Below, one piece after another: positions 16,245-54,834 of a stretch of DNA of 64,000 bases; position 1 is the first letter of the stretch; each line of letters begins with the position of its first letter. Under the pieces are notes generated by a model. It was not told the origin of the DNA. It did not search any database and saw only the letters and a list, made by a program, of their open reading frames with translations. Source of the DNA: Flaccisagitta enflata (lineage: Eukaryota); contig OZ231126.1 in assembly GCA_965153355.1 (NCBI GenBank), positions 25,792,001 to 25,856,000 on the forward strand, written 5' to 3'. The position numbers and the translations under genes were made by a program.

Positions 16245-17045
16245 ATAGTCGCAAAAGCATTAGATGGTCAGCGGTACCCGTTGCCCCTATGTGATTATGT
16301 GTTGATGTGTGATGGTGAAAGGGGCAGCGGCCCCCAAGGGGCCGATGACCTATGCTCAGTATGTTTAGTGGATATAGGCTTAATTTGAGCATCCATTATG
16401 GGATTTGAACCTCAAGGCTGGGGTTTGAGCCTCAAGAATTGGATTTGAGCCTCAAGGCTGGGATTTAAGCCTCAAGTCTGGGATTTGAGCCTTAAGGCTG
16501 GGATTGGAGCCTCAAGGCTAGGATTTGAGCCTTGAGGTTTGGATTTTGAGCCTGGAGGTTGGGATTTGAGCCTGGAGGTTGGGATTTGAGCATAAAGGCT
16601 AGAATTTGGGCTTTGAGGTTAGAATTTTGGCCTCGAGGCTAGAATTTAGGCCTCGAGGTTAGAATTCAGGCCTCAAGGCTGGAATTTGGGCCTCAAGGCT
16701 AGAATTTGGGCCTCGAGGCTAGAATTGGGGCCTTGAGGCTAGGATTGGGGCCTTGAGGCTAGGATTGGGGCCTCGAGGCTAGGTTTTGGGCCTCGAGGCT
16801 AGGATTTGGGCCTCAAGGCAAGGATTTGGGCCTCGAGCCTAGGATTTAGGCCTTAAGGCTAGAATAAGAGCTTCAAAGGGGGTGGGCCGAGGAGAAGGAA
16901 TTGCGGCCAGATGGCCAGATTTTGAGCCTAGAGGCTGGATTCTGGGCTTTGAGGCTTGAGGTTTGAGGGGGTGGACGGAGAAGGAGGAGAAGAATTTTCT
17001 CCTGTGTGAAAGCATAGGTCATCGGCCCCTTTGGGTCCACTGCCC
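16245..17045 (-). mobile_element. Family A element with an expanded 20-bp minisatellite
   Basis: Tail aatagtcgcaaaagc, inverted end units, and more than 20 units of gggcctcgaggctaggattt-like repeat at about 16400-16870. Confidence 0.85.
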
Positions 17046-18178: not shown

Positions 18179-20083
18179 ACGGACAAGCATGGTCAGCGAC
18201 ATACAGATAGGTGGACAAAATGTAAAAACAGAAGGTAGACCCTAGACAACTAGACCAGGGGATCTCGATGTGAGGTGACAAAGGCATGAGAAAATTGGAA
18301 AGGAATAAAGGGATGGCAAAAAATCAAATGAGAAAGTGGAACAGTAAAAGAACAATGAAAATTGAAAAAATGAGATGCAAAAGAAACGGAAAACGAAAAG
18401 TAAAGAAAAAAAGAAAGGAAAAGAAAAGAATAAAAAAGAAAAGAAAAGAAAAGAAAAGAAAAGAAAAGAAAAGAAAAGAAAAGAAAAGAAAAGAAAAGTA
18501 AAGGTTCAAGGGAGAATAATTCATAGTCTTTTCTTCTATCTCCGTCTTCTCTATGAACTCCCGAGAGATGTGCATAAACACGAAACAGTCGCGTTTCTCC
18601 TTCATGTTGGCAATCTCTGTGAATCTACGTCATCGTCACACAATTACTCCGTCATGAATGATATTCATAGATGTGTCGTGTTCGTGTTGGGTATTTTGAA
18701 TGATATTTTAAAGCAAGTATCGCTCAAGGCATGCTAACGCATTTATCTCTCTTATCTGGGGTTTGAATCCAAAACCATCTTAAAACTTGGAGGCATCTTT
18801 ATTTATCTTTATTTGTTGAGAAATGGTTTCGCTCCGATAATCAACTAGTCAAAGTCTATAATTGCGTGTGAGAGGGATGGGGGGTTGGGGTAAAGGCAGT
18901 GATTTATCAGCCACTTTGGTCACTGAGCAAGGGCAGTGATGCAAAAAACTGCTTGCAATGAGACAAAAAGTCCGGCTGACCGACAGATAGACAGATGTAC
19001 GAACACAGCGCTTTTTCTTTTGCTGCTCTTATTTTAGAAGTTGAACACAGCAACGGAGGGCTCAGAAGTTTGTGCTCTGAGGGAAGTTCTTAACCCGATC
19101 CTGACTAACCCATCCTATTCTACGAATGAATAACATGTTGACAACTCATTGAATAGAAAACCTTTCTTTCACGAGAGGATCAATCAATGATATCATAGAA
19201 AAGCGTTTGTTTTCATTCTAATGTTGAAGGAATGATTTTGGAGGTAAATATTCTAGTATGAATCTTAACTTGACAGCACAGATTTCTCTTCGGAATCTAA
19301 AGAGACCTGGCGACCATCTACGGACACTAGGCAACGATTTGTTCTTCTTGATTCCTTGTTATTTATTTTTTCATTTTATGACATCTTCACTTTGATTTCT
19401 TCTTTATCCGTATGAAAGTTGGAAAACATTACTACTCAACCCTACCTTACTTAAGGATGAGAGCAACTATCCTTACTAATGAAAAACAACCAAGTCTATC
19501 ATGAAATCGTTCAAAAAAAAAATAATAATCCAACCAAACAGAAAAAAATCAATGATTTTAACCTGTTTGCTACAAGTAAGTGCCAATGACAAGAAAGAGT
19601 GCCAGATGAGTGTGCTGAACCGGTGGGGCCTAATCCAAAGTCCCTCACATCCGTCTGATCTTCCCATTGTAAAAGGCTCATGCAACCCACAACTTAAAAT
19701 CAAAATTTTTTCCACTGATTGAGACCATTTTCTCAAACATTCCATGTCAACCCAAAATAAGAAGATGCAAAGTATGTACGATATTCCTTCGTTACAATTT
19801 GTTTTCCCCTTTTCAGTCGGTTTGCAATCTGTTCTCCCCCAATCATTCACCATTCCTCACTTCGCGCTCCTTTTCTCCAGATATCAGATTTATACTCGCG
19901 TTTATTTGTCCTTTTGTTTCAATTTGGGTTCCCAGATTCCCCTTCCTCTTTCTTTTCTCATTCTTTCTACTTTTCCCCTTTCTTTTTTTATCGGGTTTCT
20001 TGTCGTGTTTTTCTGATTTCTTCCTTCCTTCTTTCTGTCTTTCTTTCTTTCATTTTTTTTTTCTTTTTTTTTCTTTCTGTCAT

Positions 20084-20855
<772 letters not shown>

Positions 20856-20859
20856 TTTT

Positions 20860-26824: not shown

Positions 26825-27294
26825 GGGCAGCGGCCCCGAAAGGGGTCGATGACCTATGCTTTCACACATATGGGGAATTTTCTCCTCCTACTTCTACTTC
26901 TCCTTCTTCTTCTTCCCCCCCCCCCCCTCAAATCCCAGTCTCGATGCCCAAATTCCAGTCTCGAGGCCCAAATCCAAGTCTTGAGGCCAAAATCCTAGCC
27001 TTGAGGCTAAAATCCTATCCTAGGGGCTAAAATCCTAGCCTGGAGGCCCAGATCCTAGCCTTGAGACCCGAATCTCAGCCTTGAGGTCCAAATCCCAGCC
27101 AAAAGGCCCTATCCCAGGAGGGGGAGGAGGAGGAGGAGGAGGAGGAGGAGGAGGAGGAGAAAATTCCTCAAATGTGTGAAAGCATAGGTCATCGACGCCT
27201 TCGGGGCCGCTGCCCTGCTCCCCCCTCAAGTTCAAGCACAGCCTACTCAGGCAGGGCACGGGCACCACTGACCATCTGACGCTTTTGCGACTAT
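26825..27294 (+). mobile_element. Family A element (subfamily ending cgc-tttt-gcg-a-CTAT)
   Basis: Inverted end units with the cgatgacctatgctttcac variant and 20-bp central repeats. Same subfamily as 16245. Confidence 0.85.
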
Positions 27295-27549: not shown

Positions 27550-28024
27550 GTAACAAGTAGATAGAAGCCAACCTATCTACCAAGAGGAGCGACTCATAGA
27601 AACCGGTTGGAAAATTCGCTTACGGAGGAAAAGGCGGGAAAGATTGGAATTGATTCTCAAAACATCGCAAAAATTGGAGGAATGGCTTGAAATAAAGTTA
27701 TTGAGAAAAAGAAAAGAAACGTGACAACTAACTGTTGTATCTTGCCAATCTAATCTGATTTGCCGCTAAGACTTTGGGTTGTTATAGTTCATGCGAGAGA
27801 AAAAAAACATTTGTTTCTGGATATTCTGAATGATATATACTGTTCTCTGAAGATCTCTTTCCCAAAATGATTTTTAAATGGTCCATCATAACCAGTGACA
27901 ATAAGCATACGCAGCGACAATAAGCGACAGTAAGCATATGCAGTTAACTCCCGTGATAACGGATCCCAAAGGTTCGATGTATTTCATCATACTTGTCAAT
28001 AAGAAAATTTTGAATATTCCGCAC

Positions 28025-29373
28025 ATGACTAGTTGAACGATGAGAATGATGACAGCAATACCGAGAAGGATGCCGATAGGGATGAGCAGGGTCACAATCA
28101 TTCGATCAGGCGATTTCGTGATTACATCCGCTTCACTCACTGTATTTGTCGTTGTCGTTGGATTAAAATGCGCCTGTATCTCCGTTATTTCATCGTTGGA
28201 AGATAAAGCGACCAAGGCCAATGAAGCTGTTGAAAAACACCTCTCTTCCTCCGATGTTAATGCCTCCTTGGTAGGTAATGATTCGATGTTCATCTTCTTT
28301 GTGACAGTTTTCATTTGCTCGTCGGACGATGATGCGGCCATGACCAAAGAAGTTGTTGAAAAACCTCTTTTTTCTTCCGTTGTTGATGCCTCCGTGGGAA
28401 TGGACGTTTCGGTAATGGCCTTTTTTGTTTCGGTTATCATTTCGTCGATAGTAGTTGTTGATGGTGACTCCGATGTCGCGTCGTTGCAATGGACGTGTTT
28501 TCGAGGGTAGAGGACACTTTGATTGTTGATTGTTTTGACATTGAAAAAATGCCAAGAAAACTTCTGCAACCAGGCCGATTATCGACGCATGAATAGGAAA
28601 CTAAAGACCCCATATCGCACATTATGTTCCATACATCTTGTGTCGCAATTGGAGGATTTTTCATTTCGACCCAATCGTTTTGAGTCGCCCATTTGATTTC
28701 GTATTTAAATGGAGCTCTCAACTAGATACTAGCTCTCAACTGGATACTAGCTCCATACTTAACATCAACGCGACACTTGAACTTTATTGGTTGACCTTCA
28801 ACGGCTTTTTCAAGTACTATTTCTAGTGATTTGTTTTCCACGACCTGAATCTCCCGACTCCAGAGTTGATGAAGATCTTGATGCACATGACGCTTTCTTT
28901 TTTTTTTTGCATTGTGGAGCTGACCAACAGGTGACTCGGCGGGTAAAGACTCGGCGGGGACAACGGCGATTTGGGCCGGGGTCAACAACGATCCATTTCC
29001 GCAGTGATAGCTACCACCACCCTCCTCTTGCGTGGCTTGGATGACAAACTTGACGTAGGACATATTAATCGACGACTCGATCTCTCTCTTCAAGGGAGCT
29101 TCAAATGGGATAATAAAGGAATGGTCGATCAATTCGATTTCGAGGACGCGAGAAAGCAGCCAAACGAAGTTTTCTTTCTGGGACAATTCATTGTCGCATT
29201 TCCACAGCGGTTGAATCTTTCGTTCGAAGAAGGCAAACCATTTTTCAGCGTGTTGTCGATATCTGGAATGTAGATGTGTGTCTGAGTTCCCTTTTCCGGC
29301 GCATTTGCGTGGGATTTGAACCATTGTCCGGGGAAATAACAATAGTCCCGACTATCATGCTCATTTTTGCCAT
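28025..29373 (-). pseudogene. Intronless disrupted gene for an Ig-superfamily-like type-I membrane protein (2 Ig-like domains, S/T-rich stalk, TM helix)
   Basis: Joining minus-strand frames gives MAKMSMIVG.., RRKR, then GNATMNC/NFVW...FVIQATQEEGGGSYHC (Ig B, C, E-F strand pattern). It continues with KRKR, GQPIKFKC..YEIKW..SYSC, a Thr/Ser-rich stalk with an internal duplication, and hydrophobic IVTLLIPIGILLGIAVIILIV. There are at least 3 frameshifts and one in-frame stop (28722-24). Confidence 0.7.
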
Positions 29374-30753
29374 CGGGTTTGAACTTTGAAGTGTTTTTGA
29401 TAGTTGCTTTCGATAATATAATGTGATTTTTTTTGTTTTGTATTTTCAATTTAAAAAGGTTGAGAGTTGAGACAAATTAGTGATTTTTTTGTCGTAAAGC
29501 ACCTTTGCTTAACAGGGTGTCCAAAAAATTTGGCAAAAAAGTAATTGCAAATACGCCATACTTCTAGGCGACAAAGTAAGCTGAAATTTGGTATGTAACA
29601 CATGTGCAAAAATTAGGCGGAAAATGTAAAGATGTAGTTTCCATAGTAAAAATAGCTCCAGTAACATGAAATTTGGACTGAAGATAGCTATTTGGTGGTA
29701 TTTTTGGGTAGTAAGAAAATTTGATTTCAATTCGATTCATATAATGCCTATTTCAACCCTTATGTCATAATTGCGATGTCAAAATGTTGCCGATTTTCCC
29801 CATGTTTATGCTTCCAAAAGTTGCTCGTCATTAGAAGGCATTTATAGCACCCTGCGAGGAAAAAGAATAGCAAATTTGTCAGATATTTGTAGGGTAGAGT
29901 ATCAAAAAGTAAACTGACTCTGGAAGTGCGCAGTTTTTGCCCCATAGGATGGTCAATCCTGAACTACATGCATTTGAATAAAATCAAGAAAAGATTCATT
30001 TCTGTAATTGTTGCCCTTGAGGATTTACTGGCAAATCATGATAAAACAAGGTCTGCAGGACATTAAAGCCGTGCCCAATATTCCAAATTCATGAAATAAG
30101 GCACATTAGTTCATTTTGGGATTTTTATGGGTTTTGACAGCAGTTATTACACTTAATCTGTACTCAAACAATCCTTTTCCGCCTAATTTTTGCACATGTG
30201 TTATTCTCCCAATTAGTATTATTTGATGTTAGAATATGCAGCTCTTTGTATGGGTTCCCCTGGTTTGAAAGTAAAGGAATTATGTCTAGGAGAAACATTC
30301 TAGTTTGTGGGATTTTCATCAGGAAAACATTGCATAGGATAGCAAGATTTTAACTATCTTTTACATCAAATTTGGTACCCAAATTTGGTCAATGAATAGG
30401 TGGGTGTATATCATGGAAGCAGGAAAGTTAATCTTAAGTACTCAACATTGGCTCAAGACATTGAAGAAAATCCACTAGAATAATTCAAAATCAACCATCA
30501 ATTTTCGTTTGTTGATAAAAACTAATTTTTTTTTTTGACCACTTGAGATGAACCTTTTCTTCCTTGTACTGATATCTATTTTGGATTTTAGCTGCTTATC
30601 GGATAATAAGTATTCACAACTAACAAACCTTTAAGGCTATCATTGCTTCAAAATGAAAATACCCTGTAATTTTTTTTCCTTTTATAGAATGTCAAATACT
30701 AGTGTAAGAAACCTCTTTGAAAAATTTCAGAAAATTGAAAAAACCCAAACATA

Positions 30754-31047
30754 GGCAATTTTTCAGACACTCGCTAGCCTGACTGGGGCAACGGAGGAAG
30801 CTGAAATTTTTACTGAAGATAGACAAGACATGTGGCCAGGGTAGACCTGTAAAAAAAATTCAAATTTTATTATTTTACATACAATAAATCCAAGAAGAAA
30901 TCTGTAAAATGTATTTATATAGAGGGTAGTAGCTTTTTTGGGTATTTGTTCCAGGTCTACCCTGGCCACATGTCTTCTCTATCTTCAGTAAAAATTTCAG
31001 CTTCCTACATTGCCCCAGTCAGGCTAGCGAACGTCTAGAAAATTACC
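30754..31047. repeat. Fold-back or MITE-like inverted repeat (~95-bp arms)
   Basis: tcgctagcctgactggggcaa...gacatgtggccagggtagacctg is mirrored at 30952-31047. Confidence 0.85.
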
Positions 31048-32073
31048 ATCATTTTATCATTCATTAAAGAGAAAATTAAAAGAATATACACGGTAAAGAT
31101 ACAATTCATGAACGATTTTTTTCATCAACTCTTTTTAGCCTCCCCAACTATCAGTTTTAAATCACAGATTCATGGAAGCAGTCAGCGTCTGTGGCTAGTG
31201 AGTGGATCGTCTGACATGAGTACTGAGATAATGCGCAAGGTGAGAATAGAAATCAAGCTCTTGAAACATTGACATAGGAAGAAGAATTTGTGATTAAGGA
31301 ATGACAGACGGCCCCCTTTAATCTGTTGTTCATATCATGCACTGATACATTAAAAATTTTCATTTTTTCCCCTTCACTTAACCAAAGCATTCTTGATTTT
31401 GTTTTTGCTTTGTAATTCGGGTCAGGATTGTGCTATACAGTTGAAAATTGAAAGAGAGACCCTCAGTACGCACATTAGTCCAATCATCATGAAAACAGAT
31501 TTTTAATTTGTCGCCTATCTTGAGGAAATGTAAGCCTTAAGGGCTTCCAGTTGTCTCACGTGAAAAAAATCAATAATTAGGTTCATGGTGATTAATGACA
31601 TGTACAGTCCACACATTTTTAGGGACTCAAGTCTGTTTGATCGACTCACTATTGATATAGCATGACATAATAGAGACTGCTATAGAATTACAGTACACTA
31701 GGAAGCAAGCAGCACTGAAATTCAAAGTTGTGTGTTTTCCTAGCAACGAGTTACCAAGATACTGGCCTGAAACAACAAGTTTCAAAGGCCGAATCAATTA
31801 AAATGCATGTTACCCAACTCAAATCAGTACAAATCAATCTGGGGTAGTGAAAATTAGCGGTACATTTTTTTACATGTTCCTGACCTCAAGAAGGCATGAA
31901 ATTTTATATGTGATATCGGACAGAGGTGGTGAAGGGCCACCCGATTTGATTTATGAGAATTGCCCATTCCTTGATACCTTCACATTAGAATCGATTTGAT
32001 TTGCCTACTCAAAATGGCTTCCAGTGAACATTTGAAATCGCACAGTCGTTTGTACGCATCTTCTAAACACATA

Positions 32074-33176
32074 CCGTATTTCCTCTAATTAGCGCCCCTC
32101 CTCTAATTAGCGCCCCCCCTCTTTTGAGAAAATGATTTTTTTCAAATTTGCTTCTTGGTTATTCTTCGTTTCGTAAAAGTCAGGTTTTTGTTGATTTTTT
32201 TACCTTTTTGCTTGTTTTTCTTATTGTATTTGTAAATCTCTCAGTTGAAGGCACATTCTACCTTTTTTTTGGGCAGCGGCCCCGAAGGGGACGAAGTCCT
32301 GTAGAACACAGGGGGAATCTGTCCGTCCGTACGTCCGTCCGTACGTCCCCCCCCACCCCACCCTCAGGGCTTCGTCTCCTTTGGGGCCCAAATCCAAGCA
32401 AAATGGCCCAAATCCTGCCAAAATGGGCCAAATCCAGGCAAAAATGGCCCAAGACCAGGTAAAATGGACCAAATCTGGCTAGGAAACCTGAATTCTGGCC
32501 TAAGTTCTATCATCTTGGCCCCTTAAACTTAGATTCTGGCTCCCAAAACCCACATCCAAGCCTTAGAGACCCAGATTCTGACCTTCAAGACCTAGGCTCT
32601 GGCCTCAAAGACCTAAATCTAAGCCTCAGAGGCCAAATTGATTTAAATCCTGGCCTCAGAGACTGAAATCCTTGCCTCTGAGACCAAGAAATTGGTCTCT
32701 GAGACCCAGATTCTGGCCATAAAGACCCAGATCCTGGCCTGCTCCTCTCTCAACTTAACCTACAAACTATACAATAAGGGCAAGGGGACCATTGTCCATA
32801 TACTGCCTTTTGTCATTTCTCCGTGGTATTCAATGAAAATTTGAATAACAGGGCTTCCTGGACAGAAGGAAGGCAGACAACAGGACGGACGGACGGATGG
32901 ACGGACAGATTCCCCCTGTGTTCTACAGGACTTCGTCCCCTTCGGGGCCGCTGCCCTGCTCCCTCTCAACCTTAATCACTTTCTACTCAAGCAGGGCACG
33001 GGTACCGCTGACCACTTACTGCCTTTGGGCTGCTATTTACCCAATATACACTGGGTTTTTTTTGATATTTTGTTCTTTTCTAGACACTTCAGAGGGGGCG
33101 CTATTTAGAGGGCAGAAAAAGCTATGTCATTTTTCAATTTTGTAAGCGCCCCGGGCGCTAATTAGAGGAAACACGG
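32074..33176. mobile_element. TA-flanked MITE (CCGT terminus) carrying a family A insertion
   Basis: TA-ccgtatttcctctaattagcgccc ... gggcgctaattagaggaaacacgg-TA. Confidence 0.88.
32271..33036 (+). mobile_element. Family A element
   Basis: Close copy of 8802-9597, inserted in a T-run. Confidence 0.88.
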
Positions 33177-34789: not shown

Positions 34790-36230
<1,441 letters not shown>

Positions 36231-43889: not shown

Positions 43890-44178
<289 letters not shown>

Positions 44179-45420: not shown

Positions 45421-46043
45421 CCATCTTGGCCATAAATATGGAAACAGTTAGTGTATAAGTTGATTTATTGACTAGAATTGAACGACAAACATATCAAAAC
45501 GCATCTAGTATTTGGTGTGACCGCCTTGGGCATCGACCACCGCCTGCATGCGCCGTGGCATCGATTCGTAGAGAGACTGGAGGTACGCCGGAGTGATGTT
45601 GTCCCAAACCTTTTGCGCGATTCTTTTCAGCCCAGCGATCGATGTTGCTCGTTCGTGTCGCTGCAGGTGCTTCATTTGGCTCCACAAGTTCTCAATGGGA
45701 TTGAGATCTGGACTGTTTCCAGGCCAACCCTCGAAGAGCTTAACACCTCGATCCTGGTGCCATTTCTTCGTAAAAACCCGAAGTAAAAGTAAAAAAATAG
45801 AAAGATGATGACGCTGAGGGGTAGAATGACTTTTTTTCCTCCATTTCTTTCCTCCTGCAAAAAGCATATGCTTTCTTCTTTCAGCTCTCATTTCTAAACG
45901 AATAAAGATACAGGAACCAGCTTGGTCTCATTCAATAGATCTTTTGCAGACGCGAATTTTGAAAAAAAAAATCATCTCTCTGCGATGAAAATTGAGCGAG
46001 TTATGACACTTTTTAGCTGTTTCCATATTTATGGCCAAGATGG
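45421..46043 (-). mobile_element. Internally deleted Tc1 transposon
   Basis: Perfect 27-bp TIR ccatcttggccataaatatggaaacag, TA TSD, and a transposase C-terminus inside. Confidence 0.93.
45505..45780 (-). pseudogene. Tc1-family DDE transposase C-terminal fragment
   Basis: WPGNSPDLNPIENLW ... LYESMPRRMQAVVDAQGGHTKY* are hallmark Tc1 motifs. The N-terminus is missing. Confidence 0.93.
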
Positions 46044-48014: not shown

Positions 48015-49039
48015 TGTCTTCTCTGCCTTTCCCCTTTCCTGTTTTTAGTCCGCCTCTTCTGGCGCGAACGGAGACCAGACTGCTGAGGGAGACAATCTAA
48101 AAGAACAGACAGTGAAAAAGACGAAAAAAGACAACCAGAGTAAGAAAAAAGACAAGCAGAGTAAGAATGAAACGCGACCAGAAAAAGAGTAAGTCGCCGG
48201 GGAATAGACATGGCATCATGCAGTGTTCCTGGGTCTACCATTCAAGACGTTTGATAATAAGTCCATCAATGAGTCAATTATCGGGTCTTTGAACAAGTTA
48301 GTAAGCAAGTTAGCGGATAATTCAGTCAGGTTAGATAAAGTTTGCTCTGCAATTTTAGCCATACATAACGTCAAACAGCCATGTAGAAATCAGAAAGCAA
48401 AATTCTACGCATATTCATGAGGGAATTCATTCTAGATCTTATCATCAAAAATAGAGGCTGGTGGTTGATACAAGCCCTGATTAAGTAGTATTGAATAAGA
48501 ATTTTCATAATATCTCTATCGAGAAAAGGCGTTCGACCTCTTCTCCTCCAATCCTTCCCTTTTGTCAGTCTGAAACCCTACCACAACTCCCACCCCCTTC
48601 CTCCACTTCACTCCCCTCCTCCATATAAATCCTCACCACTATTGATATGCATTTATCTCAATGGTAGTTCTTTTTCTTTGTTCTACTTTTTTTTCTCTTC
48701 TCATTTTCCAGGCTGTGATTATCGTCTCTAGTATCTTTCATCTCTACCTTATGTGTAACCCATTTAAATACTCGTCCCTCATCCTTCGCATTTGTATTCC
48801 ATCATTTTTTAGAACTACTTTTTTTCTCTTGTATTTTTTTCAATTTTCATCTTCTATCTATTTTTGCTATTCTCATTTGTTCCACTTCTTCATCGCATTT
48901 CTGTTTCCTACTTCATTCTCTCATTTATCCTCTCTCATTGTCTCATTGTCTTGTTGTTATGTTTGTCTTTCTTCGTATATGGATATTAGTTTGCCTCTCT
49001 CTGTCTGTGTGTCTGTGTGTTTAAGTCTCTGTATGTCTG

Positions 49040-49268
<229 letters not shown>

Positions 49269-49734
49269 ACTTTCGCTTTTGCTTTTCAAAGGCGCGACAT
49301 CTTTTTTTTTCTTTCTTGCTTTTTTAATTTTCCTTTGACTGCTTTGCCTCTCCTCTCTCTTCTTTTTTTTTCATTCTTTTTTTTTTTTTCGTTTTCTTTT
49401 ACTTATCCATTTTCTTCTTCTTATTTCATTTTTTTTTCTCCCCCTCTTTCAAAAATTCAATTCAAATTTGGCGCCAAAAGCCGTCACAGTTTTGAACAAA
49501 GAGTTTGCCCTTCGACCTCGGAAGATGGCGTCGCCGATGGCGAACAAGCAGAAGTAGAAGGAAAAGAAGAAGAAGAAGAAGAAGAAGAAGAAGAAGAAGA
49601 AGAAGAAGAAGAAGAAGAAGATGAAGATGAAGAAGAAGAAGAAGAAGAAGAAGAAGAAGAAAAGGAAGAAGAAGAAGAAAGAAAAGAAAAGAAAGAAAAG
49701 AAAAGAAAAGAGAAAAGAAAAGAAAAAGAAGAAA

Positions 49735-49953
49735 AACAAGTGACGCGGGGTCACAATATCGTTGCGGACGGGTGGGCAGGGGCATCCAACCCCCATCCAC
49801 ACCCCAAGTCCCCCACTCTCATACACAAAATGCATCTAATACACTTGTTTTCGCACTTTTCGACTCGTGTTCACGGACCGACGGACCGACGGACCGACGG
49901 ACCAACGGACGGACGGACAAAGCCTCTTATAGAGTTGCGTGTCCGCAACTAAA
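49735..49953 (-). mobile_element. Family B element (gttgcg subfamily), complete
   Basis: Minus strand: ttttagttgcggacacgcaact ... gtccgcaac ... hairpin gtgac-cccgc-gtcac, then ttgtt. Confidence 0.85.
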
Positions 49954-54038: not shown

Positions 54039-54114
54039 TTCTTCCCTTGGTTCATTTTCCTTTGTTTCTAATCTCGAATCCTTAACTTTCTCTGATTTCA
54101 TTTTCTTTCCTTTT

Positions 54115-54480
<366 letters not shown>

Positions 54481-54834
54481 CTTTGTTTGTTTCTTTGTTT
54501 CCTTCTTTCTCATTTTACTCATTTTCTTTCTATTTGTACCGGTACGCGCATCCATTGTTCGGACGCTCGGTCAGTCTGACTGAGCTATGATGCATTTATT
54601 GAACATGCTGGAGACTTCTAGCATCACTGTTCCTCACTTCATATAACATTTTAACCATACTTTATTTATTTCGTTGTCTGCCATAAAAGAAAATACATAC
54701 ATTTTAAATGGCTGGACGCATCCATGACTTGATTGACGTTGTTTACTTTTGAAATGCCTCTTTTTCCCAACTCTGTCGATGTGTCTGTACGTCGGTCGCA
54801 TCGTCTCGCATCACCACCCTTGCCCAAAAACTTG

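Follow-up and report, generated by a model that had tools for sequence, protein, structure and literature searches.

A probable dying gene for a predicted membrane glycoprotein, with lesions still polymorphic, in Flaccisagitta enflata

A gene relic on the minus strand

The stretch of DNA analysed here, referred to below as the window, comprises 64,000 nucleotides (nt) from Flaccisagitta enflata (assembly GCA_965153355.1, contig OZ231126.1, positions 25,792,001 to 25,856,000); all coordinates are those of the window. Between about 27886 and 29356 its minus strand holds the relic of a gene, which appears to have encoded a surface protein with Cys-containing modules, a stalk and a membrane anchor. 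The original prediction for this locus had described an intronless relic of a surface protein with two immunoglobulin (Ig)-like ectodomain modules, each preceded by a furin cleavage site, and had suggested a viral gene or a processed retrocopy as its source. The letter strings that it quoted were all present in the sequence. Four stop-free frames cover the locus:

28722–29351, minus strand: frame of 209 amino acids (aa), from the list of open reading frames (ORFs)
28437–28721, minus strand: frame of 94 aa, identical in frame to the 28722–29351 ORF and parted from it only by a TAG at 28724–28722
27886–28578, minus strand: frame of 230 aa, from the ORF list
29129–29476, minus strand: frame of 115 aa, overlapping the 5′ end of the relic

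The long frame read through, with X at the stop (query P0002), was used for database searches. Among 574 word-sharing candidates from 5.8 billion clusters a single protein was confirmed, P0003, which showed 50% identity over 242 residues (E 1.2e-60; pairwise E 2e-74). An exhaustive phmmer search of 1,835,955,588 representatives at E ≤ 0.001 returned three proteins only, each of them a continuous ORF on a contig of about 1 kb:

P0003, 315 aa: phmmer E 3.9e-61; ENA singleton cluster, contig of at most 1224 bases
P0004, 265 aa: phmmer E 7.7e-14; ENA singleton cluster, contig of at most 1029 bases
P0005, 194 aa: phmmer E 1.1e-8; ENA singleton cluster, contig of at most 1097 bases

Further members were not found: a profile search confirmed two of 3107 candidates, neither of them new, and a search with P0005 returned, out of 87 candidates, only P0005 itself. 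None of 118 candidates from JGI metagenomes and none of 72 from prokaryote genomes was confirmed, nor were any of the pattern matches in IMG/VR (0/24 and 0/1), a collection that does not cover all invertebrate viruses. The only PHROG match was a weak one of P0003 to phrog_22349 (E 7.5e-4), a family of unknown function; it was put down to chance, and the window copy had none. At E ≤ 1 no Pfam family matched either ectodomain ORF of the window; at E ≤ 10 there was none for P0003 or P0004, and for P0005 a 14-bit chance match only (HSNSD-CE, 14.3 bits). By these searches the family is tiny and unannotated. In the literature on invertebrates no described family of this architecture was found that is specific to the locus.

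Every stop-to-stop piece of the window, in six frames, was compared with a profile of the three relatives only, with the window row excluded and all filters off (hmmsearch --max). Four pieces matched: 29132–29476 (profile positions 50–102, E 8.9e-9), 28725–29351 (positions 105–261, E 4.1e-55), 28440–28721 (positions 272–345, E 5.2e-11) and 27889–28578 (positions 330–381, E 0.069). These matches are colinear and spread over three reading frames, while no other piece of the six-frame window gave E < 1; a relic is thus indicated far beyond chance. The weak match on the stalk side is backed by a pairwise one, in which residues 35–72 of P0001 (the frame at 27886–28578) align to residues 262–299 of P0003 with 39% identity (E 1e-4), beginning three bases past the end of the preceding alignment. 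The frames given by tblastn agreed with this mapping. The coding homology extends over some 1.4 kb and is continuous, without introns. The earlier view of the locus as the intronless relic of a surface-protein gene whose ectodomain modules contain cysteines therefore held, with the homology lying in four colinear pieces and the frames broken.

No second copy of the locus was found elsewhere in the 64-kb window. In two DNA sequencing runs that carry the same organism label as the window, X1 and X2, word depth across the locus was 84–148 and 72–95, respectively; from about 29364 upward it climbed to 10^3–10^5, marking the onset of high-copy repeats. The single-copy depth indicates that the locus is not a multi-copy mobile element.

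Parts of the relic and corrected frames

From 5′ to 3′ on the minus strand, the following parts were recognized:

29357–29512, minus strand: unique A-rich 5′ flank, with no TATA-like box and no in-frame Met, and unlike the relatives' first ~50 residues; high-copy repeats set in at about 29512 (depth, and record 4 of run X1)
29210–29356, minus strand: second half only of the N-terminal module, DSRDYCYFPGQWFKS...NGLPSSNERFN, in the frame of ORF 29129–29476 (tblastn with P0004 and P0005; profile positions 50–102)
29205–29209, minus strand: frameshift 1, the loss of 4 bp beside a substitution at 29209, seen as a frame switch between tblastn high-scoring segment pairs ending at 29210 and starting at 29204
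28962–29204, minus strand: middle module, where conservation within the family is highest (alignment to P0003)
28890–28908, minus strand: A11 run followed by GAAAGCG, encoding KKKRKR in the homologous frame; the relatives are not basic here
28527–28871, minus strand: third module, HQLWSREI...VEGQPIKFKC...YEIKW...NPPIATQD...NIMC...SKQ, in the frame of the middle module (P0003 residues 140–245)
28713–28753, minus strand: 18-bp tandem duplication within the third module, 2.3 copies with 95% matches (Tandem Repeats Finder, TRF)
about 28470–28490, minus strand: frameshift 3; homology to P0003 exits the 28437–29351 frame at 28479 and resumes in the 27886–28578 frame at 28476
28102–28476, minus strand: Ser/Thr/Glu-rich stalk, with S+T 33% (over 135 aa), D+E 16% and P 3.7%
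28187–28312 and 28313–28438, minus strand: tandem repeats of the stalk, 126 nt (42 aa) each and 71% identical (repeat search)
28036–28101, minus strand: predicted transmembrane (TM) helix MIVTLLIPIGILLGIAVIILIV (hydrophobicity)
27886–28035, minus strand: hydrophobic, unconserved tail to a TGA at 27888–27886, with 19–29-nt tandem repeats at 27887–27943

In the remnant of the N-terminal module the Cys conserved among the relatives is a Ser. The middle module contains the invariant motif GGG.[FY]HC.NGSLL.PA (29024–28983), the NGS sequon of which is common to all four sequences; an NCS sequon is also conserved in the family, and the consensus motif FNCS.W.C is conserved in the relatives. P0005 has a hydrophobic N-terminus. 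If the ectodomain were read in frame past frameshift 3, it would end at the TGA at 28439–28437. The two stalk repeats of about 40 aa and the TM helix that had been predicted were both recovered: the Ser/Thr-rich repeated region is followed by a single helix, whose top 19-residue Kyte–Doolittle window (P0001 residues 163–181, at 28092–28036) has a mean of 3.03. The low proline content makes the stalk atypical of proline–threonine–serine mucin domains. The tail accounts for some 50 codons at the end of the 230-aa frame and is probably unconstrained as coding sequence, given its tandem repeats at 27887–27943 and the polymorphic 10-nt deletion that X2 shows at 27921. On the opposite strand a stop-free frame of 157 aa (28037–28510, plus strand) runs antisense to the stalk; it matched no family (best M11L, E 0.22), and the simplest explanation for it is the bias towards Thr/Ser/Glu codons on the strand that codes for the stalk. 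The M11L match and one to bCoV_NS6 (E 0.046), both on antisense ORFs, were judged to be due to chance.

The original prediction had been assembled by stitching minus-strand frames together. This stitching was wrong in part: upstream of 29210 the homologous frame is not that of the ATG it had chosen. This ATG (29373–29371, MAKMSMIVG) and the proposed signal peptide (29290–29373, minus strand) fall in a non-homologous 42-codon frame, the bases of which, when read in the homologous frame, give SHANAPEKGTQ and align to the relatives. The RRKR proposed as a furin site (29301–29290) is also out of the homologous frame, and GNATMNC resulted from reading the upstream frame past the 4-bp deletion, the true frame being WKCDNELSQKEN. 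The second proposed furin site, KKKRKR, is in frame, but the relatives have KTTSRH (P0003) or TTLGF (P0004) in its place, and the A11 run varies in length between individuals (A15 in X2); it is therefore a mutable homopolymer, with no cleavage site kept by the family. NFVW and SYSC had been taken earlier as Ig landmarks, but the Trp of the former and the Cys of the latter are private to the window and not conserved in the relatives. The viral and furin reading was a false lead, now removed, that arose from stitching frames without a homologue.

Disabling lesions and their alleles

Profile positions 1–49, covering the signal peptide plus the N-terminal module's first half, were unmatched in the window copy. 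The missing 5′ part was not found by tblastn over the whole window, by Smith–Waterman comparison against 200 shuffles (29357–32300, scores inside the shuffle range) or by profile search. Upstream in the homologous frame no Met was present (first 45 residues of the 29129–29476 frame), and in homology searches nothing in the window copy matched residues 1–50 of P0005, where a signal peptide would be expected. The ORF of the relatives is unbroken across the point at which the window homology ends.

Contigs from X1 and X2 were compared with the window over 27600–32000. Record 11 of X2 covered 28989–29536 with 0 differences, the 4-bp deletion included, so the frame change at 29205 is no assembly error; record 2 of X1 covered 28102–28868 with 0 differences, the TAG included, which shows the TAG to be real. 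This in-frame TAG sits in the second copy of the 18-bp duplication. Behind 29205, record 3 of X1 had four additional letters, and position 29209 was substituted; on our reading, these changes would restore the register of the upstream and downstream frames across the FNCS.W.C motif. X2 has an A>G change at 28724 (plus strand), giving CAG instead of TAG, and four extra letters in the A-run at 28898–28908 (A15), so that the frame is shifted in this allele. No indel was seen at 28470–28490 in the contigs of either run, frameshift 3 being common to both. The lesions by source are the deletion, the TAG and frameshift 3 in the window; the TAG and frameshift 3 in X1; and the deletion, the A-run insertion and frameshift 3 in X2. 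Two of the window's lesions, the deletion and the TAG, are therefore polymorphic, and the A-run change is a third variable lesion. No lesion-free contig set was found among those sampled. Translation with the ciliate code (table 6), where TAG encodes Gln, was considered and rejected; it removes the stop, yet the frameshifts stay and non-coding frames lengthen equally.

Constraint, expression and CpG content

Over 27905–28838, X2 and the window differ at 26 positions (10 synonymous, 15 non-synonymous and one stop-to-Gln change). For the 330 codons of 28025–29018 there were 8 synonymous and 14 non-synonymous differences on 227 and 763 sites, respectively, giving a ratio of non-synonymous to synonymous polymorphism per site (pN/pS) of 0.52, which does not differ significantly from the neutral value of 1 (p 0.13). 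Two conserved cysteines were lost in the window copy, where GL.CS has become GLPSS and ENC has become ENF. The cysteine losses and the pN/pS value would fit relaxed constraint, although they are no proof of it. A poly-A RNA run that bears the organism label of the window (X9) yielded 0 reads from ~6% of the run, even on high-copy repeats, and hence provides no test of expression. Five further runs, marine or seawater metagenomes by label (X3, X4, X5, X7 and X8), held 5–14% of the sampled words; nothing was drawn from them.

The locus had been described as CpG-rich unlike its flanks, and this was confirmed: its observed/expected (o/e) CpG ratio is 1.21, the maximum of the window, against 0.45–0.54 in the flanks (window median 0.68, 95th percentile 1.02). 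CpG transitions account for 4 of the 26 allele differences, and 10.8% of the bases lie in CpG; with so few transitions the CpGs of the locus do not appear hypermutable, as expected of DNA that is unmethylated in the germline. The CpG richness most likely reflects a germline-unmethylated region and not foreign origin. Such regions are typical of invertebrate adhesion and inducible genes. In oyster, a high CpG o/e ratio is described as marking predicted hypomethylated categories that include cell adhesion and cell–cell signalling (PMC2996979), and inducible genes are likewise described as having a high ratio (PMC4378018, PMC10883760).

The putative Ig fold

The original prediction had assigned the ectodomain modules to the Ig fold. 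No profile of the Ig clan (V-set, I-set, ig, C2-set, Ig_2/3) matched the window ORFs at E ≤ 1 or P0003, P0004 and P0005 at E ≤ 10, and sequence searches of the PDB gave chance-level matches only. One of them, between P0005 and a T-cell receptor V-alpha domain (E 0.17), was rejected because it does not bring the Ig landmarks into register. The spacing C...W...D-x(5)-C occurs in the N-terminal module of P0005 and P0004 and in the third module of the window and P0003; in the middle module G-x-[FY]-x-C is invariant, but no Trp is conserved. From these alignments we infer the assignment of the Cys, Trp and Asp landmarks to Ig strands. In a feature search of the Atlas, the whole of P0005 had V-set clusters as neighbours at 0.88–0.90 with 152–162 shared features (true members typically share 170), which is a lead only; poxvirus Ig-like receptor clusters were also among its neighbours (0.87–0.88, below the lead threshold). 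The middle module of P0005 alone gave nothing above 0.85. The Atlas model of P0005 was poor (pLDDT 0.38, pTM 0.36). A hydrophobic-moment check of beta against alpha periodicity, a crude measure, did not rise above shuffles except for the window's third module (6/300). Comparisons with hhalign among the three modules detected no internal similarity (probabilities 0.07–0.24, uninformative with 2–4 sequences). An Ig-like beta-sandwich has roughly even odds in the N-terminal module and in the third; for the middle module the odds are lower.

Origin and state of the locus

We read the locus as a dying, lineage-restricted host gene, that is, an unprocessed pseudogene in which single lesions are still polymorphic. 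The probability of this reading as a whole is put at about two in three (0.68). Its sequence indicates that the window copy is non-functional or nearly so and unable to make the ancestral protein. That product, as reconstructed from the relatives and the window, would have been a type I membrane glycoprotein with a signal peptide, followed by an ectodomain of three modules that contain cysteines and conserved sequons for N-glycosylation. A stalk of ~125 aa with 42-aa repeats, acidic, rich in Ser/Thr and probably O-glycosylated, would have held the modules off the membrane, and the C-terminus would have consisted of one TM helix and a short, unconserved tail without a recognizable signalling motif. 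By analogy, such an architecture suggests an adhesion or recognition molecule, not an enzyme or a signalling receptor. The window copy has no detectable 5′ part, with neither initiator nor signal peptide; it carries the 4-bp deletion and a premature TAG that arose in the 18-bp duplication, and frameshift 3 disconnects its ectodomain from the stalk and TM helix. The deletion, the TAG and the A-run change segregate among individuals of the species. The gene would now be drifting to loss.

Several observations weigh against this reading. A pN/pS of 0.52, together with 12 third-position changes out of 26, could equally mean residual constraint, and a CpG o/e ratio above 1 is unusual in long-dead DNA. 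A 155-nt contig of a marine metatranscriptome (X6, depth 3.8) is identical to 29218–29372; it may represent a transcript or carried-over DNA. A signal-peptide exon further upstream is possible, with a candidate acceptor near 29388. Further, the contigs are unphased and a haplotype free of the three variable lesions may exist; with frameshift 3 alone, such a haplotype would encode a secreted three-module protein that lacks the stalk. Finally, the three relatives are ENA fragments of ~1 kb, and P0003 and P0004 are possibly damaged themselves, so that they may not be intact over their whole length.

The same observations bear on whether the gene is still live. In that case null alleles would be segregating, an upstream exon not seen so far would provide the Met and signal peptide, and frameshift 3 would lead to a secreted form ending at the TGA at 28439–28437. 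Such a gene would agree with the polymorphism of two internal lesions out of three, each of which one run shows in its unbroken form, with the identical metatranscriptome contig, and with the high CpG o/e ratio, the little CpG decay and the pN/pS value; polymorphic pseudogenes with active coding alleles are described among immunity and olfaction genes (PMC11576641). We nevertheless consider it unlikely, as no lesion-free contig set was seen, searches across the 64 kb turned up no 5′ exon, the ORF of the relatives is continuous where the window homology ends, and two conserved cysteines are lost. X9 gave 0 reads, though this is no test of expression. A long shot is that the locus represents a class of surface receptors with three modules that is new, Pfam-less and restricted to a single lineage of marine eukaryotes. 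Coding and null haplotypes would then be kept side by side by balanced or adaptive loss, as happens with genes of immunity, allorecognition or gamete recognition, and frameshift 3, common to all contigs, would have yielded a secreted decoy.

The processed retrocopy proposed earlier, or a member of a retrogene family derived from a fast-evolving receptor gene and decayed after insertion, would account for the intronless 1.4 kb of homology, the want of a recognizable promoter element and 5′ part, and the isolation of the locus in a repeat-rich, gene-poor region. However, no poly-A tail was found, nor any AATAAA or ATTAAA within 600 nt downstream; A-runs of at least 8 are confined to the coding part and the upstream side; direct repeats flanking the locus were not seen; and no intron-bearing parent is known. 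The relatives are also continuous ORFs, so that, if their contigs are genomic, the intronless state may be the norm of the family and not a sign of retroposition. Retroposition is on these grounds very improbable. An endogenous viral element, i.e. the decayed glycoprotein gene of a large DNA virus or other virus, is scarcely credible: although the family is an orphan without cellular annotation, its CpG content differs from that of the flanks, poxvirus clusters are among the Atlas neighbours, and viral glycoproteins too can combine Ig modules, a stalk and a TM helix, no relatives were confirmed in IMG/VR, the one PHROG match is to a family of unknown function, both furin sites are artefacts, no viral family or viral neighbour was found by Pfam in the window (87 ORFs of at least 75 aa and 112 of 45–74 aa), and the locus has single-copy depth with ordinary allelic diversity.

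For the dying host gene preferred here, the biology is modest: a lineage-restricted family represented by no more than this locus and three database fragments of about 1 kb, with one copy caught in mid-death. The find is ordinary in kind, and its interest lies in the unannotated family and in the decay in progress. If an intact paralogue exists, a family recognized by no profile library would merit structure prediction.

The surrounding window

The window is eukaryotic in style, and 153 TRF arrays make up 19.5% of its 64 kb. Among them are a 1.08-kb (CAGA)n and a 0.84-kb (TTTC)n array; examples lie at 35031–36113, 20017–20857, 54102–54510 and 43890–44175. The window's other ORFs of more than 150 aa all run through tandem arrays. 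Among the 87 ORFs of at least 75 aa, five had a Pfam match at E ≤ 0.01, none of it viral and only one credible (DDE_3); the 112 ORFs of 45–74 aa between 14 and 44 kb matched no Pfam family at E ≤ 0.001. Further features are:

45508–45927, minus strand: remains of the C-terminal part of a Tc1/mariner-type transposase (DDE_3, E 2.2e-6, 28.0 bits; cut-off 28.6)
29585–30214: element of ~620 bp resembling a miniature inverted-repeat transposable element (MITE), with 40-nt terminal inverted repeats, 88% complementary, and a near-perfect core of 29–30 nt
30760–31042: palindrome of ~290 nt, arms 79% matched (blastn), folding into one DNA hairpin at −100 kcal/mol (z −21.5), very high depth
32267–33000 and 8798–9561: long copies, 84% identical, of a composite repeat of ~780 bp
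48990–49949, plus strand: low-complexity ORF with VC/GT repeats and then a Glu run (PFF1_TM, 34.2 bits against a cut-off of 32.3)

Around the transposase remnant no more transposase domains were detectable in the three frames up- and downstream. Word depth at the MITE-like element is 10^4–10^5, against ~100 at the gene relic, and many contigs skip the ~550 nt between its arms; the palindrome is probably a further foldback or MITE-type repeat. Fragments of the composite repeat were seen at 15.5–16.0, 20.85–21.27, 27.19–27.26, 54.8–56.0 and 60.2–60.5 kb, and it is associated with a 20-nt satellite (16401–16862, 26929–27100, 32385–32475). Its occurrence on both sides of the locus is the chance expectation at such density. 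The PFF1_TM match is almost certainly a compositional artefact.

Comparison with known systems

The stalk and TM helix gave a weak compositional match to podoplanin (PF05808; E 0.0044, 17.8 bits against a curated cut-off of 30), which was judged to be due to chance. Both are regions of small mucin-type membrane glycoproteins, but podoplanin, unlike the locus, has no Cys-containing modules. The layout of MAdCAM-1-type molecules is described as comprising several ectodomain modules, an O-glycosylatable Ser/Thr-rich region and a membrane anchor (PMC7372927). The likeness is one of architecture alone, with no detectable homology, and the Ig fold of the modules at the locus is putative. TIM-4 is described as having a signal peptide, a Cys-containing N-terminal ectodomain, a Ser/Thr-rich mucin-like region, a TM segment and a short tail (PMC7142236), and the order of parts in this member of the TIM family is like that proposed for the ancestral protein. 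There is, however, no sequence similarity and no match to the Pfam V-set; the locus has three modules against the single IgV of the TIM family, its stalk is acidic with 3.7% proline, and the copy described here is broken.

Segregating pseudogenes form the nearest comparison for the state of the locus, although nothing specific to it was found in the literature on such pseudogenes in marine invertebrates. As in the class of polymorphic and unprocessed pseudogenes as defined in PMC11576641, broken and unbroken states of single lesions coexist at the locus. The locus differs in that no fully coding allele was seen, frameshift 3 and the missing 5′ part being shared by all contigs. These two shared defects place it closer to a gene that is already dead and is gathering further polymorphic lesions.

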